Part shown: piece by piece, positions 12,453 to 64,000 of the stretch | How positions within the stretch are numbered: the stretch's first letter is position 1 | Layout of the letters: each line of letters begins with the position of its first letter | DNA from: Escherichia phage FL18 | Sequence record: PP400780 | Strand: one strand, 5' to 3' | DNA: 64,000 nt | Notes under the pieces: model-generated | Told to the model about the DNA's origin: nothing | The model's database searches: none | The model's input: only the letters and a program-made list of their open reading frames with translations | Translations under genes and position numbers: made by a program

Positions 12453-13187
12453 ATGGAGCTAATCTTTTTAAGTGGCATCAAACGTAGTGGTAAAGACACT
12501 ACTGCTGATTACATCAATTCAAACTTTAAATCCGTAAAATACCAATTGGCATATCCGATTAAAGACGCTCTAGCAATAGCCTGGGGACGTAAACATGCTG
12601 AAGATCCTGATGTATTCACAGAGTTGAAATACGAATACTTTGAAGGCATTGGATATGACCGTGAAACACCATTAAATCTCAATAAGTTGGATGTTATTGA
12701 ATTATTGGAAGAAGCGCTAATTTATTTACAAAGTCAATATTTACCAATTAATAATGTTAAAGTATTATCATCATTAGAAGGTGGGTATTCATATCTAGAT
12801 ATTAAACCATATGAAGCCCTGCGTGAAGCTATAAATAATATCAACGACACATGGTCAATCCGCCGTCTTATGCAAGCCCTCGGTACGGATGTTGTCGTTA
12901 ATTTATTTGACCGTATGTATTGGGTTAAACTTTTTGCATTAAACTATATGGATTATATTGGAAGTGATTTCGATTACTATGTTGTAACCGATACACGCCA
13001 AGTCCATGAAATGGAAACCGCTAGAGCGATGGGTGCTACAGTTATTCATGTGGTTCGCTCTGGTACGGAATCCACTGATAAACATATTACAGAAGCTGGG
13101 TTGCCTATTGAAGAAGGCGATTTAGTTATTACAAACGACGGCTCTTTAGAAGAGCTTTATTCTAAAATTGAAACAATCTTAAGGTAA
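12453..13187 (+). CDS. 1: deoxynucleoside monophosphate kinase gp1
   Basis: 244 aa; N-terminal P-loop-like LSGIKRSGKDT; synteny. Confidence 0.75.
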   Translation: MELIFLSGIKRSGKDTTADYINSNFKSVKYQLAYPIKDALAIAWGRKHAEDPDVFTELKYEYFEGIGYDRETPLNLNKLDVIELLEEALIYLQSQYLPINNVKVLSSLEGGYSYLDIKPYEALREAINNINDTWSIRRLMQALGTDVVVNLFDRMYWVKLFALNYMDYIGSDFDYYVVTDTRQVHEMETARAMGATVIHVVRSGTESTDKHITEAGLPIEEGDLVITNDGSLEELYSKIETILR

Positions 13188-34703: not shown

Positions 34704-35684
34704 ATGTTCAACGTTCAAATCAAAAAAGGTATCTATCGTAATAACGAAATCTCTGGTTCTTATGTTGCCACAAAGACCTGGTTCCCGGCAAAGCTTAATC
34801 CTGAATGTTCCCACTTAGGTGATGGTAAAATTTTCGTTATGATTGATGGTTCTGAACGTGGAGTATGGGTCTTCAAATCAGACATCATAATGGAAGGAGT
34901 TGAGACATCGCCAGTTGCAGTTGTTGAAAGCACTGAAGATATGAAAACTCGTATCAACAAACGCTTTAAAGTAATGAACATGATGACGAATGGCATTATC
35001 GATGGCAAAATTCGTTCACTCATTATTTCAGGTGCAGCTGGTATTGGTAAGACGTATTCTCTGGATAAAGCACTTAATAATGCTAATGATAACGGTTTCA
35101 TCAAATACAAAAGCATTAATGGTAAAATCTCTGGTATTGGCCTTTACGAACAACTTTGGCCCAACCGTGATGCAGACAGCGTTCTCTTAATCGACGACGT
35201 TGACGTATTCTCAGATATGGACATCTTGAACCTTCTTAAAGCAGCATTAGATACCGGAGATAAACGCAAAGTTTGTTGGAGCACTGCGTCATCTTATCTC
35301 GACGATAAGGGTATTGATAAAGAATTTGAGTTTGAAGGTACTATCGTTTTCATTACAAACGTTGATATCGATAAAGAGTTAGAACGCGGTTCTAAACTTG
35401 CTCCACACCTTCAAGCTTTAGTATCTCGTTCAGTGTATCTCGACCTTGGAGTACACTCTAATGAAGAGATTATGGTTCGAGTTGAAGATGTAATATTATC
35501 TACTGACATGATGCAGAAACGTGGTCTGACGGATGCAGAAACGTATAAAGCATTGTCCTGGATGAAGGCTAACGTATCTCGTCTTCGCAATGTATCATTA
35601 CGTACGGCTCTTTATGTAGCAGATTTTATTTCAACTGATAAAGATGGTTGGGAAGAAATCTCGGAAGTTACTTTACTGAAATAA
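34704..35684 (+). CDS. AAA+/P-loop ATPase
   Basis: Walker A GAAGIGKT, Walker B LLIDDVD; 326 aa. Confidence 0.55.
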   Translation: MFNVQIKKGIYRNNEISGSYVATKTWFPAKLNPECSHLGDGKIFVMIDGSERGVWVFKSDIIMEGVETSPVAVVESTEDMKTRINKRFKVMNMMTNGIIDGKIRSLIISGAAGIGKTYSLDKALNNANDNGFIKYKSINGKISGIGLYEQLWPNRDADSVLLIDDVDVFSDMDILNLLKAALDTGDKRKVCWSTASSYLDDKGIDKEFEFEGTIVFITNVDIDKELERGSKLAPHLQALVSRSVYLDLGVHSNEEIMVRVEDVILSTDMMQKRGLTDAETYKALSWMKANVSRLRNVSLRTALYVADFISTDKDGWEEISEVTLLK

Positions 35685-40241: not shown

Positions 40242-40715
40242 ATGTTATTATCAGGCGCAAAATATAAAGAAGAAAAACAAAAATTTTATGATGCACAGAA
40301 TGGTAAGTGTCCTATTTGCCACCGTGAATTAGACCCTGATGTTCAAGGTAACCATCTTGACCACGACCACGAATTAAACGGGCCAAAAGCCGGTAGAGTT
40401 CGTGGATTACTCTGTAATCTGTGCAACGCAGCAGAAGGTCAAATGAAGCATAAGTTCAACCGTTCCGGTCTTAAAGGACGTGGTGTCGACTACCTCGAAT
40501 GGCTTGAAGCTCTTCTTGTTTATTTGAAACAAGATTATTCTGATAATAATATCCATCCTAATTTTGTTCCAGACAAAACTAAAGAGTTCTCAAGACTAGG
40601 TAAAGAGGAAATGATGGCTGAGATGCTTCAAAGAGGATTTGAATATAATGAATCTGACACCAAAACACAGTTAATAACTTCATTTAAGAAGCAGCTTAGA
40701 AAGAGTTTAAAATGA
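40242..40715 (+). CDS. 49: endonuclease VII (Holliday junction resolvase)
   Basis: 157 aa; zinc motif CPIC...C..C and HLDHDHE; strong similarity to recalled T4 gp49. Confidence 0.85.
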   Translation: MLLSGAKYKEEKQKFYDAQNGKCPICHRELDPDVQGNHLDHDHELNGPKAGRVRGLLCNLCNAAEGQMKHKFNRSGLKGRGVDYLEWLEALLVYLKQDYSDNNIHPNFVPDKTKEFSRLGKEEMMAEMLQRGFEYNESDTKTQLITSFKKQLRKSLK

Positions 40716-41380
40716 ATGTAGTATATAAACTATCATTTATTAGTAGAATTAATGCTAAAACCCCGCCATATTATTATATTGGAAGTAAAACCAATTGCAC
40801 TTTTGACGGAACGAATATTATTGATAAAAATGGTAAATTTTATTATTCGTCTTCGTCATCTTCCGAATTTCAAAAAGCTTTGTTGAAAGAAACACCGAAA
40901 GTTGAAATATTATATTTTCAATTAGTCGGAGATGAACAAATAACTAGCATTGAAGCTGAATTTCAAAAGAATATAGAAAAAGATATATGGAATAAAGAGT
41001 ATTTTAATTTAGCATATGCTAATGGTCAATTTACAACGTACGGTGTTTCTCCTTCTAAAGAAACTAGAGAAAAGCAATCAATAACCATGATTAAAAGAAA
41101 TCGTAATAAAGGTAAAAATCATGGATTTTATGGAAAGCATCATACTAATTTAGCCAGAAAGAAAATATCAGAAGCTTCTAAAAAATACTGGAAAGAAAAT
41201 CCACATCATGGATTTTCGCACACAAAGGAAGCTAAAATTAAAATTGGAATTTCATCTTCTATCAGGCATAAAGGAAGTGGAAATCCGATGTACGGCGTAA
41301 AACCTTGGAAAACTCCTAGCGTTGTTCCATGGAATTTAGGTAAAATGAAAGAAATGGTAAAACGAGTAAAACATGCATAG
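40712..41380 (+). CDS. GIY-YIG family endonuclease (short form)
   Basis: VYKL...YYYIGSK plus NUMOD3-like GKNHGFYGKHHT motifs; 222 aa. Confidence 0.55.
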   Translation: MNVVYKLSFISRINAKTPPYYYIGSKTNCTFDGTNIIDKNGKFYYSSSSSSEFQKALLKETPKVEILYFQLVGDEQITSIEAEFQKNIEKDIWNKEYFNLAYANGQFTTYGVSPSKETREKQSITMIKRNRNKGKNHGFYGKHHTNLARKKISEASKKYWKENPHHGFSHTKEAKIKIGISSSIRHKGSGNPMYGVKPWKTPSVVPWNLGKMKEMVKRVKHA

Positions 41381-42203
41381 GTATTATATAATTTATAAAA
41401 TAACAAATATAATTAATTCAAAGGAATATATCGGTGCGCATAGCACCGATAACATAAATGATGGTTATATGGGATCAGGAACATTGATTCGTGCCGCTTT
41501 ATTAAAATATGGTAGAAAAAATTTTAATAAAGAAATTTTACATGTTTTTGATAATGAAAAACAAATGTATGATAAAGAAGCTGAACTCGTAACCGAAGAG
41601 TATTGTCTAAAAGAAAATACATATAATATTAAACCTGGTGGAAAAGGTGGAACTGCCTATGAACAGACACTTGAACATCGCCGCAAAAATAGTTTAGCAA
41701 ATAAAGGTAAAAAGAGAACAGAAGAAACTAAAATAGCTATTTCACGTGCTTTAAAGAAATATAAACGTACGCCAGAGCATCAAGCAAATTTAAATAAAGC
41801 CGTAAGCATAGCTATGAAGCGAAAAGATGTTAGAAGTAAATTAGCTGGAGAGCGGTCTGAGAAAGATAAATTACCTATATCAAACGGTGTTAAAAAATAT
41901 TACAATTCTTTGAGTGAAGAAGAACGCGAACTTCATCGCAAGCGAATTATTGAAGGTAAAAAGAATTCTCCCATGTCATTGGAATCTAGACAAAAGCTTT
42001 CAAAAGCTTTAAAAGGACTTCAAGTTGGTTCAAAAAATCCAATGTATGGAAAAATTTCTCCAACTAGCAAAACCGTTTCAGTTGACGGTATTAAATATGA
42101 TTCAATTAAAAAGTGCTCAAATGCCATAAAAGTTTCTAGACATCTTATACTAAAACGCTGTAATTCTACTGATGAAGCTTGGAAAAATTGGATATTATTA
42201 TGA
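41373..42203 (+). CDS. GIY-YIG homing endonuclease
   Basis: YIIYKITN...EYIGAH...GSG, three NUMOD3-like repeats, C-terminal HTH; 276 aa. Confidence 0.65.
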   Translation: MHRYYIIYKITNIINSKEYIGAHSTDNINDGYMGSGTLIRAALLKYGRKNFNKEILHVFDNEKQMYDKEAELVTEEYCLKENTYNIKPGGKGGTAYEQTLEHRRKNSLANKGKKRTEETKIAISRALKKYKRTPEHQANLNKAVSIAMKRKDVRSKLAGERSEKDKLPISNGVKKYYNSLSEEERELHRKRIIEGKKNSPMSLESRQKLSKALKGLQVGSKNPMYGKISPTSKTVSVDGIKYDSIKKCSNAIKVSRHLILKRCNSTDEAWKNWILL

Positions 42204-42670
42204 ATTATGACAGAATATACCCGTGTTGCTTTGTGAATGGCCCTGGATGCAGGGTCGTTCTTTTCGTTACAGGTTGTTTGCATAAATGCGAAGGGTGTTA
42301 TAATAAATCAACATGGAATGCTAGAAATGGTGTTCCATTCACTGGTGAAACACTAGAACAATTAATTGAATGTTTGAATAATGATTATATAGAAGGATTG
42401 ACTATAACCGGAGGTGACCCTCTTTATCCTGATAACAGAGACGTGATTCACTCTGTGGTTCAAACTATTAAAAATCTTTATCCCAATAAAAGCATTTGGT
42501 TGTGGACAGGATATAAGTTTGAAGATATTAAACAACTAGAAATGCTTAAATATGTTGATGTTATTATTGATGGGAAGTATGAGAAAAATCTTCCGACTAA
42601 AAAGCTGTGGCGAGGATCAGATAATCAGCGACTTTGGTCAAATACCGATGTGGTGTGGAAACATGATTAA
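42203..42670 (+). CDS. nrdG: anaerobic ribonucleotide reductase activating protein (radical SAM)
   Basis: CLHKCEGCYN cluster; 155 aa. Confidence 0.75.
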   Translation, partial: NYDRIYPCCFVNGPGCRVVLFVTGCLHKCEGCYNKSTWNARNGVPFTGETLEQLIECLNNDYIEGLTITGGDPLYPDNRDVIHSVVQTIKNLYPNKSIWLWTGYKFEDIKQLEMLKYVDVIIDGKYEKNLPTKKLWRGSDNQRLWSNTDVVWKHD

Positions 42671-45489: not shown

Positions 45490-45519
45490 TAGATCTATGA
45501 ATTGAGCTAAGAGGTGAAA

Positions 45520-46077
45520 ATGTCAGAAACTAAGCCTAAATATAATTACGTAAACAATAAAGAGCTTTTACAAGCTATTATTGATTGGAAAACAGAATTA
45601 GCAAATAATAAAGACCCAAATAAAGTAGTTCGTCAGAATGATACTATCGGATTAGCCATTATGCTTATTGCAGAAGGCTTATCTAAACGTTTCAACTTTT
45701 CAGGATACACCCAGTCTTGGAAACAAGAGATGATTGCAGATGGGATTGAAGCCTCTATTAAGGGACTTCATAATTTCGACGAAACTAAGTACAATAACCC
45801 GCATGCATACATAACTCGAGCTTGTTTTAATGCTTTTGTCCAACGTATCAAAAAAGAACGTAAGGAAGTTGCAAAGAAATATAGTTACTTCGTTCATAAT
45901 GTCTACGACAGTCATGACGATGATATGGTAGCGTTGGTAGATGAAACGTTTATTCAAGACATCTACGATAAAATGACGCATTATGAAGAATCCGCTTATA
46001 AAGCTCCTGGGGCTGAAAAGAAGGAAGTTGTTAGCGATTCGCCTAGTTTGGATTTTTTATATGAGGACGACAATTGA
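45520..46077 (+). CDS. 55: late-transcription sigma factor gp55
   Basis: 185 aa, same length as T4 gp55; synteny. Confidence 0.75.
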
Positions 46078-46276
46078 CATCTCTAACTACTTAGAAGAAC
46101 CTTTTGACGAAGCAATCCCTTATTTGGTAAAACTGTTGGGTCGAGAATTTAAAATTAATTTTGACATCGACCCTTTGAACCCACATGACGTGTCATTTTC
46201 GATAAATGGGACTCCAGTTGAGTACGAGTTCCGTATTGAAGAGGACGGACGTTTTTATTTTAATTTAATGAGATAA
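46061..46276 (+). CDS. hypothetical protein
   Basis: 71 aa from internal ATG. Confidence 0.35.
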
Positions 46277-46277
46277 T

Positions 46278-46601
46278 ATGACTACCGAGATTATTGAAAA
46301 TAAAGAAGCAGAAGATGCAGTAGCTAAAATGCTACAAGAAATCCAAAAGAAAAATGAAGCTGAAGCACGTAAAAAATCCGAAAAGATTCTTAAAAAGAAT
46401 CGTTTTGAACTAAACCGTCTTTATGCTCATGCTCAAGAAGCAGCAATTCAAAACAACTTCGAAGCTTACGAATATGCTATTAAGAAATCTCGGGATATTC
46501 TACGACAACCATATAATGACAAGTTAATTAAAATCCAGTGGGTTACTACTCGTCAGGCTATTGAGGACATCATTAATGGCGCTAGTTCAAACAAAGTTTA
46601 A
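46278..46601 (+). CDS. hypothetical protein
   Basis: 107 aa. Confidence 0.45.
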   Translation: MTTEIIENKEAEDAVAKMLQEIQKKNEAEARKKSEKILKKNRFELNRLYAHAQEAAIQNNFEAYEYAIKKSRDILRQPYNDKLIKIQWVTTRQAIEDIINGASSNKV

Positions 46602-46782
46602 ACGTCTGAAGCTGAACGCAGGGTTCACCCTTAAATTGGGAGGTCCTCTTTGTGTTAAAATTTCTGAAAAGGAATATCACGACGGTTCTATTACAGAAAT
46701 TTGTCCGCCTATTGTAAAGGCACACCCAAAACAACTCGTGTGGGTTGATTCATTTCAAGTTAAGAAATGGTGGAAACGATGA
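46576..46782 (+). CDS. hypothetical protein
   Basis: 68 aa. Confidence 0.4.
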   Translation: MALVQTKFKRLKLNAGFTLKLGGPLCVKISEKEYHDGSITEICPPIVKAHPKQLVWVDSFQVKKWWKR

Positions 46783-46821
46783 GAGAAATTGATTTAGGCA
46801 TTTTCTGAGAGGTGCTTATGC

Positions 46822-46995
46822 ATGACGAACATCCCGACTTCTGAAAATTTCGATAAAATCCGTAAAGGCAAAGCAGAAAGAATGAGACGTTTTAAAGAGT
46901 CTTATGATAAAGCTAAAGCCGAAGGAACTATTACATACAAGCCCATTCGATTTAAAAGTTCAAATGAGCCTCTGTACGGTGTACTATGTGGATAG
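46822..46995 (+). CDS. small basic protein (57 aa)
   Basis: SD GAGGTG; below ORF-track cutoff. Confidence 0.35.
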   Translation: MTNIPTSENFDKIRKGKAERMRRFKESYDKAKAEGTITYKPIRFKSSNEPLYGVLCG

Positions 46996-47018
46996 GAACT
47001 CTTCGGAGTTCCTTTTTT
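46996..47018 (+). terminator. intrinsic terminator (aggaactc-ttcg-gagttcct + T6)
   Basis: seen in sequence. Confidence 0.6.
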
Positions 47019-47041
47019 GCTTTATAAACGGATGATAGAAT
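47018..47041 (+). promoter_or_regulatory. candidate middle promoter (TGCTTTA + 11 nt + TAGAAT) for gene 47
   Basis: seen in sequence. Confidence 0.4.
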
Positions 47042-47064
47042 GAATTAACTAATGAGGAAATAAT

Positions 47065-48084
47065 ATGAAAATTTTGCACTTAGGCGACTTCCATATCGGA
47101 GTCAAACAAGACGACCCATGGGTTCAAGATATTCAACGTGATGGTATTCGACAAGCAATTGAATACTCTAAGAAACACGGGATTAAAACTTGGATTCAGT
47201 ACGGTGATTGGTTTGACGTCCGTAAAGCAATAACACATCGTACAATGGAATTCAATCGTGAAATCGTTGATATGATTTCTAAAGCAGGCATTCACGTTCA
47301 TGTCACGATAGGAAACCATGACATGGCGTTTAAGAATACAATAACACCTAACACTGTTTCTGAATTGTTAACTCAATTTGAAAACTTTACTATTTACGAG
47401 CATCCGACTACTGTAGATTTTGACGGATGTCTGATTGATATCGTTCCATGGATGTGTGAAGAAAATACAGGTGAAATCTTAGAGCACATCAAGACTTCTT
47501 CTGCCGCATATTGTGTTGGGCACTGGGAACTGAATGGCTTTTATTTCTATAAAGGGATGAAGTCTCATGGGCTTGAACCTGATTTCTTAAAGACCTATAA
47601 ACAAGTCTGGTCTGGCCACTTCCATACAATCTCTGAAGCTGCTAACGTCAAATATATTGGGACACCATGGACCCTTACTGCAGGTGATGAGAACGACCCT
47701 CGCGGATTCTGGGTATTTGACACTGATGTTGAACGTATGGAATTTATTCCTAATGAAACAACATGGCATCGACGAATCACTTATCCATTTAAAGGCAAAA
47801 TCAATTATTCTGATTATACTAATCTAGCCGTACGTGTTATAGTATCAGAAATTGATTCAGAGTTGACTAAGTTTGAATCTGAACTTGAAAAAGTAGTTCA
47901 CTCTCTTCGTATGGTTTCTAAAGTTGATAACAGTGTTGAATCTGATGACGACCAGGAAATCGAGATTAAATCACTTCAAGATATCATTAAAGAATATATT
48001 GACGCGATTCCAGATATCTCAGACGAAGACAGAGAAGCGCTGGTCAAATATTCCAACGAACTTTATATTGAGGCGACACAATGA
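47065..48084 (+). CDS. 47: recombination endonuclease subunit gp47 (Mre11-like)
   Basis: 339 aa; phosphoesterase motifs HLGDFH, GNHD. Confidence 0.85.
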   Translation: MKILHLGDFHIGVKQDDPWVQDIQRDGIRQAIEYSKKHGIKTWIQYGDWFDVRKAITHRTMEFNREIVDMISKAGIHVHVTIGNHDMAFKNTITPNTVSELLTQFENFTIYEHPTTVDFDGCLIDIVPWMCEENTGEILEHIKTSSAAYCVGHWELNGFYFYKGMKSHGLEPDFLKTYKQVWSGHFHTISEAANVKYIGTPWTLTAGDENDPRGFWVFDTDVERMEFIPNETTWHRRITYPFKGKINYSDYTNLAVRVIVSEIDSELTKFESELEKVVHSLRMVSKVDNSVESDDDQEIEIKSLQDIIKEYIDAIPDISDEDREALVKYSNELYIEATQ

Positions 48085-48338
48085 CTTTAGATGAATTTAA
48101 TAATGCTGGTCTTGGGCTTGAAGTTGAAATAGACGTTAAAGATGATGATGGATTCGAGAACACTATCAAGTATTGGATTGAACCATTACGTGTTGAAGGC
48201 AATGAAGTTAAAGCAGTTCATGTCTGCACCGACTGGGCTATTGAATTTAGCTTTAATATAATGGACAACGATACTCCCGGCTCTATTCTTAAAATGGCTG
48301 AAGCGTGTATTGAGGATGCGTATAATGACGAAGACTGA
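48081..48338 (+). CDS. hypothetical protein
   Basis: 85 aa. Confidence 0.45.
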   Translation: MTLDEFNNAGLGLEVEIDVKDDDGFENTIKYWIEPLRVEGNEVKAVHVCTDWAIEFSFNIMDNDTPGSILKMAEACIEDAYNDED

Positions 48339-48564
48339 TTATGAAATCCATCGTCATGAATTTAGTATTGGTGACGGTTATATTGGTATCGTTGAATGGA
48401 CTGAGAATTACGAGGAATCAACTCCTCGTTTCTTTGGAACAATGTATGTTACCTGTGAGTACGCACCAGGTGTTGTTATGTATGCAGAACTAGATGAATA
48501 TTTTGCTGATAGGGATGACATGTTAAAATATGTAGAGGACTTCATTCGAAGAGAATACATATGA
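48310..48564 (+). CDS. hypothetical protein
   Basis: 84 aa. Confidence 0.45.
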   Translation: MRMRIMTKTDYEIHRHEFSIGDGYIGIVEWTENYEESTPRFFGTMYVTCEYAPGVVMYAELDEYFADRDDMLKYVEDFIRREYI

Positions 48565-50249
48565 AATCATTTAAATTAAATCGTGTTCGTTATCAAAACA
48601 TCATGTCGGTAGGTGGGAATCCTATTGATATCCAATTAGATAAAGTCCAAAAGACATTAATCACCGGTAAAAATGGCGGCGGTAAATCTACGATGTTAGA
48701 AGCCGTTACTTTCGGACTTTTCGGTAAACCATTTCGTGATGTTAAGAAAGGACAAATCATTAATAGCACGAACAAGAAAGAGCTCTTAGTTGAGCTTTGG
48801 ATGGAATTCGATGATAAAAAATACTTCATTAAACGTGGCCAAAAGCCCAATATTTTCGAAATCTCCGTTGACGGTGTTCGTCTCGATGAATCTGCCAGCA
48901 GTCGTGACTTCCAAGAAGAATTTGAACGTAGCATCGGAATGTCATACGCGTCTTTTAAACAGATCGTTGTGCTTGGGACGGCAGGGTATACCCCTTTCAT
49001 GGCTCTTAGCACCCCTGCTCGTAGAAAACTTGTCGAAGACCTTTTAGAAGTCGGCACACTCGCTGAAATGGATAAAATCAATAAGTCTCAAGTTCGCGAA
49101 CTTAATTCTCAGGGACAAGTTCTTGATGCCAAGAAAGATGGTGTTATCCAACAAATTAAGATTTATAACGAGAATATCGAACGTCAAAAGAAATTATCTG
49201 GTGATAATGTAGCGCGTCTACAGAATATGTATGACGACCTAGCCAAAGAAGCTCGTTCATTAAAAGCAGAAATCGAAGAAGCTAATGAGCGACTACTTAA
49301 TATCGTTCTTGATGAAGACCCTACTGAGGCATTCAACAAGATAGGACAAGAAGCATTCTTGATTAAATCTAAAATCGACTCATACAACAAAGTTATTAAG
49401 ATGTATCATGACGGTGGCACATGTCCTACTTGTGCATCACAATTGCACCAGGGTGACCCTATTGTCTCTAAGATTACCGATAAGCTTCATGAATGTAATC
49501 ACTCATTCGAGCAACTTACCTGTCACAGAGATAATCTGAGTGTCCTAGTTGATGAATATAGAGCTAATGTTAAGACTAAGCAGGACCTTGCATCTGATAT
49601 TCGTACCAAGAAACAAGCAATGATTGCCACTATTGATAAAGCTAAGAAAGTTAAAGCTGCAATAGAACAAGCCTCGGCGGAATTTATCGACCATGCTGAT
49701 GAGGTAGCTTTGCTTCAAAAAGAACTTGATAAAATCATTAAAACAAAATCAGATATCGTTCTTGAAAAATATCATCGTGGTATTATCACAGATATGTTAA
49801 AAGATTCTGGTATTAAAGGTGCTATCATTAAAAAATATGTGCCTCTGTTTAATAAGCAGATTAACCATTATCTTAAAATCATGGAAGCCGATTACGTGTT
49901 TTCTATTGACGAAGAATTCAATGAATCTATAAAATCACGTGGCCGTGAAGAGTTCAGTTATGCTTCATTTAGTCAAGGTGAAAAGGCACGTATCGATATC
50001 GCATTGTTGTTTACATGGCGAGATATTGCTGAAAAGGTTTCTGGTGTTAAAATCAACACTCTAATTCTTGATGAGGTTTTTGATGGTGCTGTCGATTCTG
50101 AGGCTGTTAAGGCTATAGATACCATCCTTGGTAGTTTACAAAATACTAACGTGTTCATTATCTCTCATCGAGACCATGACCCTCAACGTTATGGACAACA
50201 TCTTCAAATGAGCAAAGTTGGACGATTTACTGTGATGACTGTCTCATAA
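48561..50249 (+). CDS. 46: recombination endonuclease subunit gp46 (Rad50-like ATPase)
   Basis: 562 aa; Walker A GKNGGGKST, central coiled coil, CPTC zinc hook, C-terminal signature region. Confidence 0.85.
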   Translation: MKSFKLNRVRYQNIMSVGGNPIDIQLDKVQKTLITGKNGGGKSTMLEAVTFGLFGKPFRDVKKGQIINSTNKKELLVELWMEFDDKKYFIKRGQKPNIFEISVDGVRLDESASSRDFQEEFERSIGMSYASFKQIVVLGTAGYTPFMALSTPARRKLVEDLLEVGTLAEMDKINKSQVRELNSQGQVLDAKKDGVIQQIKIYNENIERQKKLSGDNVARLQNMYDDLAKEARSLKAEIEEANERLLNIVLDEDPTEAFNKIGQEAFLIKSKIDSYNKVIKMYHDGGTCPTCASQLHQGDPIVSKITDKLHECNHSFEQLTCHRDNLSVLVDEYRANVKTKQDLASDIRTKKQAMIATIDKAKKVKAAIEQASAEFIDHADEVALLQKELDKIIKTKSDIVLEKYHRGIITDMLKDSGIKGAIIKKYVPLFNKQINHYLKIMEADYVFSIDEEFNESIKSRGREEFSYASFSQGEKARIDIALLFTWRDIAEKVSGVKINTLILDEVFDGAVDSEAVKAIDTILGSLQNTNVFIISHRDHDPQRYGQHLQMSKVGRFTVMTVS

Positions 50250-50504: not shown

Positions 50505-50921
50505 ATGTTTACTACTGTTAAAGGTTTCACTGCTGCTGATCTGAAAGTTACTTCTATCCGTACTGACGCTAACCCACATAACCATAATCGTGTTCGTAAA
50601 GCATGGGTCCTGCATTGTGATGAAGCAAGTGCTAAAAAACTCCAATCTTTGCCACAAGAAACTCGTTTTATGATTTATGGTTTTATTGATAACGATGTAT
50701 CTGATATGTGGATTCATCTGATGCGTAAGCACTATAAAGATTCTATCGAAGCAGGTGCTAAAATCGTTCTTGATAAAGACGGTTCTGAGCGTCTGGAAGA
50801 TTTCTACTGTGTTGATGCCGACGAACAACTAATTGCAGCTGGCGAAATTGTTGCTTCTAAAATTCCAGAATATATTGAATCACTGCCTGAAGCTATTAAA
50901 AAGCAGATGGTTGCTGCTTGA
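50505..50921 (+). CDS. hypothetical protein (rpbA position)
   Basis: 138 aa between 46 and 45. Confidence 0.4.
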   Translation: MFTTVKGFTAADLKVTSIRTDANPHNHNRVRKAWVLHCDEASAKKLQSLPQETRFMIYGFIDNDVSDMWIHLMRKHYKDSIEAGAKIVLDKDGSERLEDFYCVDADEQLIAAGEIVASKIPEYIESLPEAIKKQMVAA

Positions 50922-51451
50922 TAATTATGAATTTAATATATCTTATAACCTTTTATAATCGTGAGATTAAAAATGAATACCCGTGTTATTATATAGGTTC
51001 TAAAGTTTCGTGTCATTTTAATGGAAAGGATATTATTGAAGATTCTACCGGTAAAATATATACCGGTAGTGTTAATTCCTCGTATTCTCCTTTATATAAC
51101 AGATTAATAGACCAAGGCGAATATTCTGTAAAAATTTTAGGCGAAACCACATTAGACCCTAGAAGAATAGAAAGACTATTCCAACTCAATGTTAAAGCCG
51201 TTTCAAATGAAAAATATTTTAATAAGGCTTATGCTAACGAGAAGTCTAGAATATCAGCTAAAGGATATGCACCGTATAAAAATTTAAAAACAGGCAAAAT
51301 AGTAAAACTTTCTAAAAACGAAATAAACGAAGATTACGTCGGTGTTAGAAAAAATTGCAAATTGTCGGAGAATCATTTAAACGCAATTAGAGAATTTCAA
51401 AAAAACATATTGGACCAAAGAACGAAGAGAGAAAGTTTCTATTCGTTCTAA
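50918..51451 (+). CDS. GIY-YIG-like endonuclease N-terminal fragment
   Basis: IYLITF...YYIGSK; paralogous to ORF 40712. Confidence 0.45.
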   Translation: MIIMNLIYLITFYNREIKNEYPCYYIGSKVSCHFNGKDIIEDSTGKIYTGSVNSSYSPLYNRLIDQGEYSVKILGETTLDPRRIERLFQLNVKAVSNEKYFNKAYANEKSRISAKGYAPYKNLKTGKIVKLSKNEINEDYVGVRKNCKLSENHLNAIREFQKNILDQRTKRESFYSF

Positions 51452-57308: not shown

Positions 57309-57944
57309 ATGAAAACTACTCCTATTACTATCGCTATTGACGCAATCATAAAACAAGCTTCTTCTTTGGCCGCTATGGCCAAAGTAATTAGTCAAAACCC
57401 TGCTCGTTATAATGCTATTCTAGAAACTCTTCGACGCCCTGGACTTAGTAATTATGAAAGCCGGGTAATTATTACAGGTGTTGGTAAGAATGCTAATATC
57501 GCAACTAAAGCTTCCGAGACATTTGCTTCACTAGGTATTCCTAGCATGTATTTGAACACTGGGCATTATTCTCACGGTGATGCAGGATTCATTGCGCCTA
57601 ATGATGTGTTGATTCATATTAGTCGTTCTGGTAAGACTGAAGAAATGATAGGTGTTGCTAAACATCTTCGTATGATTCGTCCTCAGGTTAAACAGATTCT
57701 GTTACATTGTAACCCAGACATTCCACAAGAATACGAAGCTCTTTTTGATTATACGTTCTGTACTGGCATCGCGGTAGAGGTTGATGAGAATTCTCTGGCT
57801 CCGACTATGTCCACTACATTGTTGTTAGCGCTTATCGATACGTTTGCTATCAACCTTTCGTCTGAACGTGGATTTACCTCTAATGATTTCCTTAAGTTCC
57901 ATCCAGGCGGTGCACTAGGTGCCATGTTACGAGGCGAACAATGA
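57309..57944 (+). CDS. SIS-domain sugar-phosphate isomerase (arabinose-5-phosphate isomerase KdsD/GutQ-like, no CBS domains)
   Basis: ITGVGKN, HGDAGF, SRSGKTEE, LAPTMSTT, FHPGGALG motifs; 211 aa. Confidence 0.7.
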   Translation: MKTTPITIAIDAIIKQASSLAAMAKVISQNPARYNAILETLRRPGLSNYESRVIITGVGKNANIATKASETFASLGIPSMYLNTGHYSHGDAGFIAPNDVLIHISRSGKTEEMIGVAKHLRMIRPQVKQILLHCNPDIPQEYEALFDYTFCTGIAVEVDENSLAPTMSTTLLLALIDTFAINLSSERGFTSNDFLKFHPGGALGAMLRGEQ

Positions 57945-58084
57945 AAGCAATAACAATAGGACTTTTACTATTGATGCTTGTCATGACTATCTACTGGAGC
58001 TTAACGGCTCCGGTAATGATTCCAACACTTGTAATTGGATGGATTATGATTGGACTACAAGCAAAGTATGAATGCTTTAACTAG
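57941..58084 (+). CDS. small membrane protein (47 aa)
   Basis: ATGA overlap; hydrophobic. Confidence 0.3.
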   Translation: MKAITIGLLLLMLVMTIYWSLTAPVMIPTLVIGWIMIGLQAKYECFN

Positions 58085-58125: not shown

Positions 58126-59811
58126 ATGAAAAAAGCTGTTATTCTTGGTGCTGGACTGGCAACTCGTTTGTATCCAATAACGCATCATATTCCTAAGGTG
58201 CTTGTTAACTATAAACAAGATACTATTCTGAGCAATTTGTATACAATTTATTCTGACCTTGGCGCAGATGAAATTATTGTAGTAGTTCATTCAAAATTTG
58301 CTGAAACTGTTCGAGCTTATTGTGAACAAGAAGGGTTCAATGTGACTATTCGTACAGTTGATGAAGCGTATGGTTCTGCTTATGCTCTTGCTAAATTACA
58401 CAAAGATTTAGACGGCCATAATGTAATTGTTAACTGGTGTGATATTATTCCTGATTTTGGTTCATGGTCTTGGAATGTTAACGCAATCTATGTTAAGGGT
58501 GACGAATGTCGATATAATTTCGACGGTGAAAATATCACTAACGTAGGTTCAACAGGTGGTAATGTTGTAGGAATTTATCAGTTCAAAGACTGGGAATTCT
58601 ATATGGGTTCTACTGATGAGGAAATTCATGAATACTGCAAAGGACGTGATTTCGTAGAATTCCTTTACGGCAGCGCATTCAATAAATCAGAGCTTATGAA
58701 TCTAATTGATTTAGGTGATATGCCTAAACTTGAAAAAGCTCATGAAGTTCGTGAACTTAATCGTAGTTTTAATGCAGTTGAAATTGGTGAAGAAACTGTA
58801 ACTAAATTCGCATTAACCGAACAGGGTCGAGCTCTTCAGAAAGATGAGATTTCGTGGTATCTTAAAGTGAAATCAGATTCAGTTCCTCAGTTAGTTTCTG
58901 TTAATGAAAATAACTTTGAAATGGAACGCATTAAAGGTAAGCCTGCATTTGAATATATTAAATCCAAATCAAGTCTTGCTCGTCCACAAATTGTTGATGC
59001 AATTTTAGATGCACTGAAATTCAGCACAGACACTTATTTTGTAAGTCCTGAAACTGTTCGTCGTGATTTCACTAAAGAATTCTATACGAAAGTTATTGAT
59101 CGTTGTGAAAGCATTCAACCATTGATTGATTCATTTGGTAAAATCACACATGTGAACTACACTAAGATTGGACGTCTGAAGCCAATGCTGAAACAAGCTT
59201 TAGAACACCTCATTCGTTATCATAACCGTTCTCAGGGACAGTACTCTGTTATTCACGGTGACCCGAACTTCAGTAATACTATGATTACTGATAATGGCGA
59301 AGTCAAGTTTATCGACCCTCGTGGATATTTTGGTGAAACCAAGATTTACGGGCCAAAATTGTACGATGAAGCTAAAGTGCTTTATGCTGTTTCAGGTTAT
59401 GATGAATTCAATGCTAATCCGACCTGGGGGCAGTTTACTATTGATGAAACAACTTGTAATGTGACTATTAACATCAATCCATTAGTTTACAAATATAGAA
59501 AGATGAGTTCGTTTAACGAGTATCATCATTTGGCAGTGGCAATTATCTGGATTGCATTAGGCGGTTATTTCAAGAATAATCCACTTAAAGCGGTAGCCGC
59601 ATATTATAAAGGTATGGAACTTCTGACTAAGCAATTACGTAACATGGGCCGTGTACTTCAGGACGGCTCTATTAGTTATGACGTAGCAGAACCTGTAACG
59701 GCTACTCTGATTACAAAAAATCCTGGTAAATGGGTACTAACTGATAAAGAAACTGGTGTTTCCTATCGTCCAATCGGTGGCGATATCACTCATCAATGGG
59801 AACGAATCTAA
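58126..59811 (+). CDS. bifunctional sugar-1-phosphate nucleotidyltransferase / sugar kinase
   Basis: N-terminal GAGLATRLYPITHHIPKVLV (NTP-transferase signature); C-terminal HGDPNFSN and FIDPRG (APH/choline-kinase-like catalytic motifs); 561 aa. Confidence 0.65.
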   Translation: MKKAVILGAGLATRLYPITHHIPKVLVNYKQDTILSNLYTIYSDLGADEIIVVVHSKFAETVRAYCEQEGFNVTIRTVDEAYGSAYALAKLHKDLDGHNVIVNWCDIIPDFGSWSWNVNAIYVKGDECRYNFDGENITNVGSTGGNVVGIYQFKDWEFYMGSTDEEIHEYCKGRDFVEFLYGSAFNKSELMNLIDLGDMPKLEKAHEVRELNRSFNAVEIGEETVTKFALTEQGRALQKDEISWYLKVKSDSVPQLVSVNENNFEMERIKGKPAFEYIKSKSSLARPQIVDAILDALKFSTDTYFVSPETVRRDFTKEFYTKVIDRCESIQPLIDSFGKITHVNYTKIGRLKPMLKQALEHLIRYHNRSQGQYSVIHGDPNFSNTMITDNGEVKFIDPRGYFGETKIYGPKLYDEAKVLYAVSGYDEFNANPTWGQFTIDETTCNVTININPLVYKYRKMSSFNEYHHLAVAIIWIALGGYFKNNPLKAVAAYYKGMELLTKQLRNMGRVLQDGSISYDVAEPVTATLITKNPGKWVLTDKETGVSYRPIGGDITHQWERI

Positions 59812-60197
59812 TGCACCGTGTAGAAAACATGCTTAATCTTTGTTTTGATGTCGATGATTGTATAACAGAGTGGAATAACAATCGTGATTACGTGAACTTC
59901 AAACCTGACGTCGAAATGGTGTCTGCCATTAATGCCCTGTATGATGCAGGGCATACCATAACGCTTTACACTGCTCGCGGTATGAAGTCAGTAGGTCCTG
60001 GACGTATAGCAATTGACATTCTCCCAAGTCTGATTCAGAACTTGGAAAACATTGGTTTGAAGTACCATAATTTGCTAACACATAAACCAGTATATGATTG
60101 GATTATCGACGACAAAGCTATGCGTCCTGACGAATTCAAAGCTCTTATGAATAAAGGCGAATTCGAAACATTTAAATCGTATAAACCGAATCTATAA
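59811..60197 (+). CDS. HAD-superfamily phosphatase-like protein
   Basis: motif I FDVDDCIT; 128 aa. Confidence 0.5.
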   Translation: MHRVENMLNLCFDVDDCITEWNNNRDYVNFKPDVEMVSAINALYDAGHTITLYTARGMKSVGPGRIAIDILPSLIQNLENIGLKYHNLLTHKPVYDWIIDDKAMRPDEFKALMNKGEFETFKSYKPNL

Positions 60198-60253: not shown

Positions 60254-61414
60254 ATGAATACTTTTAAAATTGGAACGAATTTTGATTTAGCTCTTCTTGA
60301 TAAAATCGTAGAGCTCAATAAAACTTATCCTAATAGCTTGATAAACGAAGTATACGGCTCTACAAGAGAAATGGCTTTTGTAGCAGCCAGACCTGATTTT
60401 AGGCTTCCTGACGTTGACAAAAAGATGTTAGAAGATTACGTTAAACGTTGTAACGAATTAGGTATTTGCTTTAACTATACACTCAACACGATAAATCCTG
60501 GTTCAAAAAGAGAACTAGTTGAGTGGAAGAAGAAAGCTATTCAGGATTATGTTCAGTATCTTTGGTCAATAGGTGTATGGCGTATTACTATCGCTAACCC
60601 TGTTGTTATGGAAATTGTTCGTGAAGTCAATAAAGACATTGAGATTGAAGTTTCAACAATTCTACATGTCGATGCTGTAACTCAAATCAAATACTTGCAT
60701 GACCAGTATAATATCAAAAAGGTCTGCTGTGGAATTCATAAGAACCGTTCAGTTTCTTTCCTGAAGCGTGCAGCAGAGTTTTGCAATAAGAACAATATAA
60801 TATTTGAAGTTCTTGTAAATGAGTTCTGTTCTAATGCTGGTAAAGGGTATACAACACATTGTAGCTATCGTGACTCTTGCTATATTTTCCATAGTACTGA
60901 TGTTACAGCTGATGATGCTAAATCCTTAAACGGATATCCTATGCAGCACTGTATTAAAGCTCGTGATACAGACCCATTTAACTGGTTGAGAACTCGTTTT
61001 GTTCGTCCTCAAGATTTGAAACTTTATAATGATATTGGTATCACTCAATTCAAAGTTTCAGGACGTACAGGTAGCACAGACTACATTTTGAAAGTTCTTG
61101 AAGCATACGCTTCTGAAAAGTTTGAAGGTAATTTGTTAGAACTGTGGAAGCCTTTAGAGACTATTTTCACTCTTGAAAACGAAACTGAGTTTTCACATAC
61201 AGTAAATATTGAAACCTCTTTGTTAGATGGCTTTTTAGAAAAAAGGTGGTTCAGACATCCAGATTTCGATTGTGCTAATGAAATCTGCGGGACGACGTGT
61301 ACATATTGTGAAAGATATTATAAACGTCAATTATCTAAAAACGGGTTAGCAGAAAACTCTATATCTATTATTGATATAACTAACTCTGATGACGCTTTGA
61401 GGTACCCGGAATGA
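60254..61414 (+). CDS. cysteine-rich hypothetical protein
   Basis: 386 aa; C-terminal CANEICGTTCTYCERYY cluster; function not recognised. Confidence 0.5.
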   Translation: MNTFKIGTNFDLALLDKIVELNKTYPNSLINEVYGSTREMAFVAARPDFRLPDVDKKMLEDYVKRCNELGICFNYTLNTINPGSKRELVEWKKKAIQDYVQYLWSIGVWRITIANPVVMEIVREVNKDIEIEVSTILHVDAVTQIKYLHDQYNIKKVCCGIHKNRSVSFLKRAAEFCNKNNIIFEVLVNEFCSNAGKGYTTHCSYRDSCYIFHSTDVTADDAKSLNGYPMQHCIKARDTDPFNWLRTRFVRPQDLKLYNDIGITQFKVSGRTGSTDYILKVLEAYASEKFEGNLLELWKPLETIFTLENETEFSHTVNIETSLLDGFLEKRWFRHPDFDCANEICGTTCTYCERYYKRQLSKNGLAENSISIIDITNSDDALRYPE

Positions 61415-61650
61415 TTTCTAGAAAAACTTTTAATCACCAACTTAATGAAGAGATTTTGACTACGAAACTGAACACTAACGAACAAATTCTTAAAAAGGCC
61501 CTTATGGGCCTGTTTGAAACCAAAGCGGCTAAAGTGATTAAAGGACCTGTTCAATTAGAATATTACGCTGATACATTTCTTCATAGTGTTCTTGGAAGTA
61601 TCGATGCTGAAGCTTTACGTTATATCAACATTGCCAAGAAATTCAAATAA
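61411..61650 (+). CDS. hypothetical protein
   Basis: 79 aa. Confidence 0.45.
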   Translation: MISRKTFNHQLNEEILTTKLNTNEQILKKALMGLFETKAAKVIKGPVQLEYYADTFLHSVLGSIDAEALRYINIAKKFK

Positions 61651-61692: not shown

Positions 61693-62409
61693 ATGGGGAA
61701 ACATAACACAATGAAATATATCAAAGCCGCAGATTTTCAAACCGCATTTAAAGCAGTCAATCGTGAAATTTTAGAAAACCCGGAATTCGTAACTGATTCT
61801 CGTATTGGACGTTGTAATGAAATTGGGTCTATGACAGTAGTTGTTGACACTCCATCATCATTCAAAATGACTGACCCACGTATTAACCGCATCTCTTATG
61901 AATATGCCGAAGACTTCTGGAAGTTTATGATTTCTGGTGGTACCAACGCAGAAGAAGCGTTTAAGGCATATCCTAATGTCGCTAAATTTATTTCTAAACC
62001 AAAATCAGATGTTTTGCCGGCGAACTTCAATACTTTCTATGGTCCTCGCATTGCGGCCCAATTACCAGCTCTTCTAAAAGAACTTAAAGAGAAGCCTAAC
62101 TCTCGAAGAGTTGTGTTCCAAATTCTAGAAAGTTCTGATCAGGCTTTGCTTGATTCGGATGAAACGCTTGAATATCCATGTACTGACTCAGTGACTTATT
62201 ATATTCGTGATGGTAAGCTTTATACCCACTGTCATATGCGTTCTCAGAACTGTGCTGTTGTTATGCAGTTGGATTTTTATCTCCAAGGAAAATTACTTCA
62301 TTATATCGCTAACGAATGCGGTGTAGAAGTTGGTGATTATACTCATACCATGGTAAGTGCCCATGTGTTTGAACGTGATTTTGATTATGTTAAAGGATTC
62401 CTTGACTAA
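61693..62409 (+). CDS. 42: thymidylate-synthase-family pyrimidine hydroxymethylase (gene 42-like dCMP hydroxymethylase, divergent)
   Basis: NSRRVVF, YPCTDSV (catalytic Cys), HMRSQN...QLDFY; synteny before uvsX; 238 aa. Confidence 0.55.
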   Translation: MGKHNTMKYIKAADFQTAFKAVNREILENPEFVTDSRIGRCNEIGSMTVVVDTPSSFKMTDPRINRISYEYAEDFWKFMISGGTNAEEAFKAYPNVAKFISKPKSDVLPANFNTFYGPRIAAQLPALLKELKEKPNSRRVVFQILESSDQALLDSDETLEYPCTDSVTYYIRDGKLYTHCHMRSQNCAVVMQLDFYLQGKLLHYIANECGVEVGDYTHTMVSAHVFERDFDYVKGFLD

Positions 62410-63308
62410 TGGCTATTTTCCGCGTACCAATCTTGAGTATGCGGTCTTATGAAACTGGACAGTATGCTATCCTTAAGGATGGCAACTTCCAACTTCATTT
62501 GCACCGTGCTAATCCGGGTGATGTGATTACATATCCACGTAATGCATCTGATATTAAAGAATGCGAACGTCTTTTCCCAGAATTTAAGTTTGTTCCATTA
62601 TGGTATAAAGATAACGCTTATAACACTCGTAAATATTTCTGGTCTGAAAATGAATTTGTGGTTGATTCATTAATTGCTTATTATGATTGCGATTTTCTAA
62701 TCACAGATATAACTGGATATGACGGCGCTTTTGATGTAGAATTCAATTTCAATATCACTGCAGACCCTAATAAACCACGTTTTTATATTGACGAATTCTT
62801 AAAAACCGACATGTTGTCGGTTAATCGTTCAATCCAAACAACTGTGTTGAATGAACGTCAAAAAGAAGTGCTGGTTAACGCAGGTGCAGATGGTAATAAG
62901 ATTATCGTAACGCAGAAAGTTATACGTCCTTCCATCATGCAGCGTCTTGTAGGTGATTTGGCTCCTATTTATCTAGATGGTATTTTTCATCCATTTCGAA
63001 TTAGTGACCCGTGCTATCGTTTTGAACAAGTGGTTGAATGTGCAATTCAATTAGGTCAACCGCTTTATATAACCGATCCAAATAATAGCTTTGACAGAAA
63101 TAAGTATCCTGAAGAAGCGTTGATTCGAATTTTTAAACCAACTAAAACTGAGTACTATCAAATTCTTAAAGGACGTCCGAAGATTCAATATTTCGAAAAT
63201 CCTGAAGAGGTATTTCATCCAGGTCTTGGTGAGTTCATCTACTTTAATGCTTTAATTTCTTCACCGTATAATATACCTAAATATGAAGATGTCGTAATCG
63301 AGGAATAA
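62409..63308 (+). CDS. hypothetical protein at beta-glucosyltransferase position
   Basis: 299 aa; no resemblance to recalled T4 beta-gt. Confidence 0.45.
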   Translation: MAIFRVPILSMRSYETGQYAILKDGNFQLHLHRANPGDVITYPRNASDIKECERLFPEFKFVPLWYKDNAYNTRKYFWSENEFVVDSLIAYYDCDFLITDITGYDGAFDVEFNFNITADPNKPRFYIDEFLKTDMLSVNRSIQTTVLNERQKEVLVNAGADGNKIIVTQKVIRPSIMQRLVGDLAPIYLDGIFHPFRISDPCYRFEQVVECAIQLGQPLYITDPNNSFDRNKYPEEALIRIFKPTKTEYYQILKGRPKIQYFENPEEVFHPGLGEFIYFNALISSPYNIPKYEDVVIEE

Positions 63309-63309
63309 A

Positions 63310-63858
63310 ATGGCTAAAATTATTTTAGTAGATGGCCCGGATAATGCTGGTAAAACAACTTTCATTAATGACATAATGGAAATTAGTGAAAGATATGTAA
63401 AAATTGATTTCCCTAAACGAACAGTTGATGGACGTTTCGATGTTAAGTCTCGAAATGAAGTTGGCTGTTTTGAAACGATGTTGAATTATTTAGACCCTAC
63501 TAAGATTTATCTGTTAGACCGTGGATATATTAGTAACTGGGTTTACGGACGTATTCGACAAGATGCGGACTCGGTTCTTGACGTTTATGAACAGGATTAT
63601 ATTCGTCTTTGCCAAAACCATGATGTGTTCACAATTATTTTAACACGTAACGAAATGACTGAAAGTTTTGAAGACGACCTTATTACTTTGTCTTCATTCG
63701 GTTTTAATACAGTCATTTCACATTTTGAAGAGTTTGCAATTCATAACAAAATCCAAACGTATCAATTACTTAATCATGATGGTGCTAACAAAGTTATAGG
63801 ATTTAATGCAAGCGAACGTAATGGTTTGATTACAGAAATCATCAAATGGGCTCGTTAA
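63310..63858 (+). CDS. P-loop nucleotide kinase (thymidylate/dNMP kinase-like)
   Basis: LVDGPDNAGKTT and DRGYIS motifs; 182 aa. Confidence 0.55.
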   Translation: MAKIILVDGPDNAGKTTFINDIMEISERYVKIDFPKRTVDGRFDVKSRNEVGCFETMLNYLDPTKIYLLDRGYISNWVYGRIRQDADSVLDVYEQDYIRLCQNHDVFTIILTRNEMTESFEDDLITLSSFGFNTVISHFEEFAIHNKIQTYQLLNHDGANKVIGFNASERNGLITEIIKWAR

Positions 63859-63956: not shown

Positions 63957-64000
63957 AATGTCTGATTTAAAATCTCGTCTGATTAAAGCTTCTACTTCTA
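63957..64000 (+). CDS. uvsX: recombinase UvsX, first codons (continues beyond window)
   Basis: MSDLKSRLIKASTS matches recalled T4 UvsX N-terminus. Confidence 0.7.

Follow-up and report, generated by a model that had tools for sequence, protein, structure and literature searches.

T4 glucosyltransferase positions and a predicted RB69-type arabinosyl-hydroxycytosine gene block in Escherichia phage FL18

Gene content of the two glucosyltransferase slots

Phage T4 encodes an alpha-glucosyltransferase (a-gt) between genes 55 and 47 and a beta-glucosyltransferase (b-gt) between gene 42 and uvsX. Both positions were analysed in a 64,000-nt stretch of Escherichia phage FL18 DNA (record PP400780; the whole stretch is hereafter called the window), for which an initial annotation had reported neither gene and had attributed an alternative DNA modification to a block at 57.3-63.9 kb. 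Judged by nucleotide identity, the phage is an RB69-like coliphage of the genus Mosigvirus: megablast matched the last 25 kb of the window to Mosigvirus JM17 (98.7% identity across 89%) and the window to the RB69-like T-even coliphages AV111 and APCEc01 (96% each), and local alignment with the complete JM17 genome gave ~99% identity over most of the window. From left to right the window holds baseplate genes, a deoxynucleoside monophosphate (dNMP) kinase gene, the nrdC region, gene 49, nrdG, gene 55, genes 47 and 46, gene 45, genes 44 and 62, regA, gene 43, a 6.5-kb block and the first 43 bp of uvsX, with the same synteny as RB69 and APCEc01. The complete JM17 genome (168,588 bp) was scanned as a stand-in for FL18 DNA beyond the window.

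As first described, only four small open reading frames (ORFs), of 71, 107, 68 and 57 aa, separate gene 55 from gene 47 (Table 1). They are orthologues of T4 a-gt.5, a-gt.4, a-gt.3 and a-gt.2, which T4 carries upstream of, and in addition to, its intact a-gt. Between gene 55 and a point shortly after the a-gt.2 stop codon, the window and T4 align collinearly (74.8% over 1572 alignment columns), and in both phages the first 17 nt of a-gt.5 lie within the end of gene 55. Beyond a-gt.2, T4 continues with mobB, a-gt and 47.1 (~2.2 kb), where the window has instead a 69-bp spacer (46996-47064); in the alignment with T4 none of these three genes was found between a-gt.2 and gene 47 of the window, and the a-gt slot is empty. 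Because each small ORF is a full-length match to a separate family (DUF5491, DUF2654, phrog_1648 and DUF5486, respectively), the four are not fragments of an a-gt gene; their sole overlap with a-gt was a 44-aa tblastn match with E = 1.7. RB69 has a gene order identical to that of the window from gene 55 to uvsX, with a-gt.2 to a-gt.5 kept and the a-gt slot likewise empty, and the same order without a-gt between genes 55 and 47 is annotated also in APCEc01 and JM17. An 8-kb query around this interval was spanned over at least 80% of its length by 105 phage records.

Within the empty slot lies a single hairpin and promoter-like module, read directly from the sequence, which comprises a UUCG-loop hairpin (46994-47013), a T-run, TGCTTTA (47018-47024), an 11-nt spacer and TAGAAT (47036-47041). 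By comparison with the established T4 MotA-box consensus, TGCTTTA and TAGAAT would form a putative MotA-type middle promoter. In T4, mobB and a-gt are bracketed by two modules of this kind, in which GCTTTATA and a -10 element come after a UUCG hairpin; one follows a-gt.2 and the other follows a-gt (T4 L002 17700-17760 and 15590-15640, minus strand), and the single module of the window stands in the same place. The T4 cassette is flanked by two modules where the window has one; recombination between these repeated promoter-hairpin modules may therefore have been a route by which the mobB/a-gt cassette was gained or lost.

Searches of the whole window by tblastn with T4 a-gt (400 aa) and b-gt (351 aa) gave best matches at chance level (E = 0.016 and 1.7, respectively), and in the complete JM17 genome the corresponding values were 0.029 and 2.7. 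Two a-gt matches with E ~0.016 were set aside: that at 18510-18689 lies in a 207-aa ORF without a family match and that at 34830-35069 in a 333-aa AAA/STAND-like ORF, and both recur at chance level in JM17. ORFs of 318, 329, 331 and 317 aa were also considered as hidden transferases and, from family searches, judged improbable as such; two of them carry unrelated domains (DUF7275/DUF7277; RlaP nucleotidyltransferase), and in family searches the remaining two matched PHROGs of unknown function and no Pfam entry. In the phage collection a-gt is present in 657 records and b-gt in 126, and JM17, the closest relative, has neither. The absence of T4-type glucosyltransferases reported in the initial annotation is therefore upheld by sequence; a counterpart elsewhere in the genome appears at the level of fold only, in the form of a second GT-B enzyme in JM17 (the homologue of RB69 ORF003c), which is a candidate arabinosyltransferase and not a glucosyltransferase.

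Between the gene 42-like ORF and uvsX, the layout of a 299-aa ORF followed by a kinase gene is as originally reported. The 299-aa protein had been called unrelated to b-gt, which is correct for its sequence and incorrect for its fold. It has no Pfam or NCBIfam match, and a family profile built from 46 homologues retrieved no glycosyltransferase and nothing relevant among PDB sequences. Comparison of the family by hhalign gave probabilities of 0.13% with a-gt and 0.09% with b-gt, within a range of 0.09-0.34% that includes RB69 ORF003c. The GT-B fold was seen by structure comparison alone, with values of 17.7 to sucrose-phosphate synthase (6kih), 16.8 to BshA, 15.9 to PimA, 14.5 to the phage HY126 glycosyltransferase (9iqz) and 13.2 to T4 alpha-glucosyltransferase (1y6f). 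The b-gt slot is thus predicted to hold a GT-B DNA sugar transferase (arabinosyltransferase 1), whose likeness to BGT is one of position and fold and not of BGT family membership. Members of its family occur in 348 phage records, including 57 Acinetobacter phages. The second GT-B transferase, homologous to RB69 ORF003c/gp3, is encoded to the right of the window end at JM17 72426-73523; it is 98.6% identical to the RB69 protein and matches 9iqz, which is annotated as the phage HY126 glycosyltransferase, with E = 8.5e-248. The dCTPase gp56 is also encoded to the right of the window end (JM17 60822-61343).

The 6.5-kb block that contains the b-gt slot encodes proteins that are each 92-100% identical to RB69 gp45-gp55, in support of the proposal that this block supplies an alternative modification. 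The set of enzymes for the supply of uridine diphosphate (UDP)-arabinofuranose, namely an arabinose-5-phosphate isomerase (API), a kinase/nucleotidyltransferase and a HAD-type phosphatase, is complete in the window and is 98-99.5% identical to RB69 gp55, gp52:53 and gp51.

Table 1. Features of the glucosyltransferase slots, the modification block and the dNMP kinase gene, with coordinates in the window
Feature	Coordinates	Strand	Basis
dNMP kinase, gene 1 homologue	12453..13187	+	PF21448 DNMK, E = 1.7e-96, full length; JM17 annotation
Gene 55, late sigma factor, upstream landmark of a-gt slot	45514..46077	+	95.6% aa identity to T4 gp55; 94% to RB69 gp55
a-gt.5 orthologue, 71 aa, DUF5491	46061..46276	+	tblastn 47% to T4 a-gt.5, E = 1.7e-14; 98% to RB69; PF17595 positions 2-67/68; phrog_1169
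a-gt.4 orthologue, 107 aa, DUF2654	46278..46601	+	tblastn 58% to T4 a-gt.4, E = 2.5e-32; 100% to RB69; PF10849; phrog_951
a-gt.3 orthologue, 68 aa	46576..46782	+	tblastn 69% to T4 a-gt.3, E = 1.8e-28; phrog_1648 positions 1-67/67
a-gt.2 orthologue, 57 aa, DUF5486	46822..46995	+	tblastn 76% to T4 a-gt.2, E = 3e-24; PF17588; phrog_2140 positions 1-57/57
Hairpin and promoter-like module in empty a-gt slot	46994..47041	+	Sequence read directly; terminator-like match
Gene 47, SbcD-like nuclease subunit, downstream landmark of a-gt slot	47065..48084	+	100% to RB69 gp47; 75.8% to T4 gp47
API, SIS domain (RB69 gp55)	57309..57944	+	PF01380; KpsF/GutQ and KdsD families; 98.1% to RB69 gp55
47-aa ORF (RB69 gp54)	57941..58084	+	100% to RB69; 57% over 30 aa to T4 L002 5231-5320, E = 1.6e-10
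Bifunctional sugar-1-phosphate nucleotidyltransferase and kinase, 561 aa (RB69 gp52:53, HY126 AfhE)	58126..59811	+	NTP_transferase N-terminal; kinase-like families at residues 308-409; 99.4-99.5% to RB69
HAD-like sugar phosphatase, 133 aa (RB69 gp51, HY126 AfhF)	59796..60197	+	TIGR01689 capsule-biosynthesis phosphatase, E = 1.9e-13; phrog_1238; 98.5% to RB69
U32-family Fe-S-type protein (RB69 gp50)	60254..61414	+	PF01136, E = 7.5e-11
79-aa ORF (RB69 gp49)	61411..61650	+	92.4% to RB69; no family match
ThyA-family dCMP 5-hydroxylase (5hodCMP synthase), 238 aa	61693..62409	+	99.2% to RB69 gp48; 24.8% to T4 gp42
GT-B-fold glycosyltransferase, 299 aa, b-gt slot (RB69 gp46:47; predicted DNA arabinosyltransferase 1)	62409..63308	+	Structure comparison
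Thymidylate-kinase-like nucleotide kinase, 182 aa (RB69 gp45)	63310..63858	+	phrog_761 thymidylate kinase, E = 6.8e-45; 98.4% to RB69 gp45
uvsX start, downstream landmark of b-gt slot	63958..64000	+	First 14 codons as in JM17 recombinase

Two further features of the block were apparent. The genes for the 561-aa and 299-aa proteins are single intact ORFs in the window, whereas the RB69 reference record splits each of them (gp52/53 and gp46/47); the intact ORFs therefore lend independent support to the published view that the RB69 splits are sequencing errors. The 47-aa ORF resembles the translation of an unannotated T4 stretch that separates imm from gene 42; it is a vestige of the T4 gene order within the inserted block, and may be a conserved small gene that was overlooked in T4.

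A predicted route to arabinosylated 5-hydroxycytosine

The ORF between the 79-aa ORF and the 299-aa transferase gene had been described as gene 42-like. This is accurate for its position; the implied hydroxymethylase identity was not borne out, and the protein instead corresponds to the RB69 gp48-type 5-hydroxylase of deoxycytidine monophosphate (dCMP), with 99.2% identity and the substitution D169N. The 238-aa protein matches three PDB entries from phage HY126 over its full length (9iqc, 9ir2 and 9iqu; E = 7.9e-161 for 9iqc), and the fourth HY126 entry, 9iqz, is the one matched by the JM17 homologue of ORF003c; the 9iqc/9ir2 chain is annotated 'thymidylate synthase'. The protein was aligned with E. 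coli ThyA, T4 gp42 and RB69 gp48. The catalytic Cys is kept, and the protein carries L143E, N177D and D169N, the last at a position where T4 gp42 retains D169. As read from this alignment, L143E and N177D would fit dCMP specificity and a non-methyl product, and D169N is the published signature of 5-hydroxy-dCMP (5hodCMP) synthases. RB69 gp48 makes 5hodCMP with flavin and O2, and does not make 5-hydroxymethyl-deoxycytidine (5hmdC) (PMC13326640). An enzyme at the gene 42 position that yields 5-hydroxy-dCMP and not 5-hydroxymethyl-dCMP would therefore leave the phage with no 5-hydroxymethylcytosine (hmC) acceptor at all.

The chemistry of related phages has been described in some detail. RB69 DNA was found to contain arabinose and not glucose, with ORF003c proposed as the transferase (Thomas et al. 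2018; PMC6024577). Lee et al. 2026 (PMC13326640) reported that RB69 is without homologues of T4 a-gt and b-gt, revised the base to arabinosylated 5-hydroxycytosine and assigned the genes of the cluster, whose product in RB69 and related phages is mono- and di-arabinosylated 5-hydroxycytosine (PMC13326640; PMC13390438). Homologues of T4 a-gt and b-gt are reported to be missing from these phages, relatives of RB69 included (PMC6024577; PMC13326640; PMC13390438). Within this scheme an AfhE-type bifunctional enzyme makes UDP-arabinofuranose and the dNMP kinase of RB69 (gp159) turns 5hodCMP into 5-hydroxy-dCDP (5hodCDP) (PMC13326640). The same modifications are described for Mosigvirus NicPhage (NP) in the Durham collection paper, with two arabinosyltransferases, of which one belongs to the cluster and the other is encoded between the topoisomerase gene and rIIA (PMC13390438). 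For Bas46, Bas47 and HY126 the modification is credited to Mahler 2025 and He 2026, and the Afh pathway of HY126 (He et al. 2026, cited in PMC13326640) includes AfhE and AfhF, to which the 561-aa and 133-aa ORFs of the window correspond. The absence of T4 glucosyltransferases in RB69-like phages, together with its explanation, is already known from these publications, and the value of the present finding is one of annotation: the DNA chemistry predicted from the window is RB69-type and not T4-type.

From the gene content, synteny, fold and signature residues seen directly, it is highly probable that the DNA of this phage carries arabinosylated 5-hydroxycytosine, and not glucosylated hmC, as expected of an RB69-type Mosigvirus. 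The claim that the DNA is not glucosylated in the T4 manner is accordingly supported, both by the missing a-gt and b-gt homologues in the window and JM17 and by the presence of the RB69-type cluster. The base chemistry, the hydroxylase and dNMP kinase activities and the steps to UDP-arabinofuranose are those described for RB69, HY126 and NicPhage (NP), and on this model the pathway would run as follows. The flavin-dependent ThyA-family enzyme at the gene 42 position would hydroxylate dCMP at C5, and the dNMP kinase (gene 1 homologue) with host enzymes would carry the product to 5-hydroxy-dCTP (5hodCTP), which the phage polymerase would use instead of dCTP. In parallel, ribulose-5-phosphate would be converted to UDP-arabinofuranose through the API, the bifunctional kinase/uridylyltransferase and the HAD-type phosphatase. 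The 299-aa GT-B enzyme, exactly at the T4 b-gt position, is predicted to add the first arabinose to the 5-hydroxyl, and the second GT-B enzyme (the ORF003c homologue, encoded between gene 39 and rIIA.1, outside the window) is predicted to add the second. The order of the two transferases, and whether the first transfer is to DNA or to a nucleotide, are inferred.

Several points weigh against this assignment. For this phage the base itself would be assigned from the 98-100% protein identity to characterised relatives; the negative result for a-gt and b-gt covers the 64-kb window of FL18, with JM17 taken for the remainder; and the second transferase and the dCTPase gp56 are presumed for this phage from their presence in the 99%-identical JM17. 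In addition, single purified transferases of phage DLP3 gave no arabinosylation of DNA containing 5-hydroxycytosine (5hoC) (Lee et al., PMC13326640), and three products of the block, the U32-family protein, the 79-aa ORF and the 182-aa kinase, fall outside the assigned pathway steps.

Other explanations of the same genes were weighed. Homologues of the API, the nucleotidyltransferase and the phosphatase act in capsule and lipopolysaccharide pathways, and the sugar genes might accordingly serve another use, such as host envelope metabolism, with unglycosylated 5-hydroxycytosine or plain cytosine in the DNA. The sugar genes are, however, interleaved with those for the hydroxylase, the GT-B enzyme and the nucleotide kinase in one co-oriented block that is conserved in many Straboviridae genera, and the virion DNA of relatives is mono- and di-arabinosylated, which makes such a use very improbable. 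Even less credence can be given to continued production of glucosyl-hmC, with the 299-aa GT-B protein as a cryptic b-gt analogue that transfers glucose from UDP-glucose to hmC: the sole ThyA-family enzyme at the gene 42 position carries D169N and is nearly identical to the RB69 enzyme that makes 5-hydroxy-deoxycytidine (5hodC) and not 5hmdC, the full UDP-arabinose pathway adjoins the transferase gene, and the DNA of both RB69 and NicPhage (NP) holds arabinose and not glucose. The view that a-gt is missing from this sequence alone, through a deletion or faulty assembly, and not from the lineage, finds some encouragement in at least one private-looking gap (nrdD is absent while nrdG is present) and in a homing-endonuclease content that differs from that of JM17, but is scarcely tenable given the same a-gt-less order in RB69, APCEc01 and JM17, the 105 phage records that cover at least 80% of the 8-kb query, and a junction that consists of a clean, single hairpin-promoter module.

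Arabinosylated 5-hydroxycytosine, as predicted here, resembles the T4 system in several respects. In both, a C5-oxygenated dCMP is produced by a ThyA-family enzyme, cytosine gives way entirely to the modified base, GT-B enzymes use a UDP-sugar, and the slot that separates the ThyA-like gene from uvsX encodes the first transferase. The differences are that the transferase of the window has no sequence homology to a-gt or b-gt, that the acceptor is a 5-OH (ether linkage) rather than the 5-CH2OH of T4, that the sugar is arabinofuranose from a donor made by the phage itself, and that the hydroxylase uses flavin and O2 and not folate. Clusters in phages DLP3 (Acinetobacter) and Thanatos (Shewanella) share homologues of the 299-aa transferase, the ThyA-like hydroxylase, the API, the AfhE-like enzyme, the phosphatase and the kinase. 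DLP3 has three transferases and tri-arabinosyl-5hoC, with no U32 gene listed in gp76-83 (PMC13326640); Thanatos has one transferase, and in Dhakavirus IME08 the cluster is present without U32. Arabinosylated 5-hydroxycytosine shapes the sensitivity of RB69-like phages to restriction, CRISPR and type IV systems.

The U32-family gene as a candidate hydroxylase gene

The U32-family gene may be the only potentially new element of the block. Its RB69 homologue, gp50, is currently labelled 'peptidase' or 'sugar or heterocycle reductase', the latter by Lee et al. (PMC13326640), who give it no further discussion. Among the members of the U32 family are UbiU/UbiV, TrhP (ho5U in tRNA) and RlhA (ho5C in rRNA), hydroxylases that depend on prephenate and not on O2. 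We tentatively suggest, as a possibility that falls short of an expectation, that the phage protein is an Fe-S, O2-independent pyrimidine C5 hydroxylase that provides an anaerobic second route to 5-hydroxycytosine, with a phage 3-deoxy-D-arabino-heptulosonate 7-phosphate (DAHP) synthase boosting prephenate, which would be the oxygen donor. Pairing of the ThyA-like enzyme with a U32 enzyme would parallel the dual TrhO/TrhP and UbiIHF/UbiUV systems.

The model of the U32 protein has a predicted local distance difference test score (pLDDT) of 90, and its top PDB match is 5d88, the only solved U32 structure, with a template modelling (TM) score of 0.73 normalised to the target. Across 40 homologues, ten Cys positions do not vary. 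The spacing in the phage protein, C203-X5-C209-X23-C233, differs from the canonical [4Fe-4S] motif CX6CX15-16CX3-4C and was counted against the hydroxylase reading. When five sequences were aligned with MAFFT (the phage protein and UbiU, UbiV, RlhA and TrhP of E. coli), their divergence was too great for the Fe-S Cys to be located, and the phage Cys were left unaligned with the E. coli motif.

The gene is present in 221 phage records, all at 80% identity or more, from enterobacterial hosts, with Shewanella among the matches listed; Acinetobacter is not among the ten host genera tallied, compared with the 57 Acinetobacter phages that have the 299-aa transferase. Mosigvirus also encodes a full-length AroFGH-type DAHP synthase outside the window (JM17 111774-112766; L005 11774-12766; TIGR00034, E = 3e-128), which may supply prephenate. 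This gene is found in 212 records with a host-genus tally resembling that of U32, and from these tallies and from records in both sampled tables the two genes appear to co-occur.

More distant U32 homologues, at 46-58% identity, are ~360-aa proteins encoded on phage-like metagenomic contigs, where the genes around them serve deoxypyrimidine metabolism and DNA glycosylation. A homologue of the 299-aa transferase gene is close upstream of U32 in five of eight unrelated contigs of phages that encode PolIII-alpha; in four of these the two genes are directly adjacent, and in the fifth they are parted by API-like and AfhE-like genes only. Contig L014 has in a row the transferase homologue, API, an AfhE-like gene, U32 and DAHP synthase. 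On other contigs the neighbours of U32 include dCMP deaminase or NT5C, dNK and nucleoside deoxyribosyltransferase, and on one further contig a TAGT-like transferase, dUTPase/DCD and UDP-galactopyranose mutase. Taken with the distribution and the protein features, these contexts are read as moderate support for a base-hydroxylating role, which might be that of an anaerobic counterpart of the flavin enzyme. The flanks of U32 retrieved from the contigs (~4-10 kb on each side) contained no ThyA-like gene; such a gene could lie farther off, which would tell against the hydroxylase reading, as does the presence of the pathway without U32 in Dhakavirus coliphages. Were the U32 protein a hydroxylase, full cytosine replacement by a gut phage without oxygen would be explained, oxygenated pyrimidines in viral DNA would have a third enzymatic origin, and prephenate-dependent hydroxylation would extend from RNA and quinones to DNA precursors.

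The nrdD gap and homing endonucleases

The gene for the large subunit of the anaerobic ribonucleotide reductase, nrdD, is absent from 40242-42670 of the window, although its activase gene nrdG is present (42179-42670). Two ORFs separate gene 49 (40242-40715) from nrdG. The first (40712-41380) is a truncated homing-endonuclease ORF corresponding to the first 205 of the 273 aa encoded by a JM17 gene, and the second (41373-42203) is a 276-aa GIY-YIG/NUMOD3 ORF that, with its flanks, is 99.3% identical in DNA to segH-nrdG of Tequatrovirus RB3. The window thus differs from RB69 in having no nrdD and in having a Tequatrovirus-like segH, and the gap could be a real deletion through homing-endonuclease traffic or an assembly chimera.

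Homing-endonuclease genes were noted at two other places. Within the modification block, JM17 carries a GIY-YIG homing-endonuclease gene (48195-48956) between its AfhE-like and phosphatase genes that is not in the window (59807-59833). A homing-endonuclease-like ORF at 50918-51451 of the window, between rpbA and gene 45, has 33% identity to the JM17 endonuclease. These near-identical genomes differ mainly in their content of homing endonucleases.

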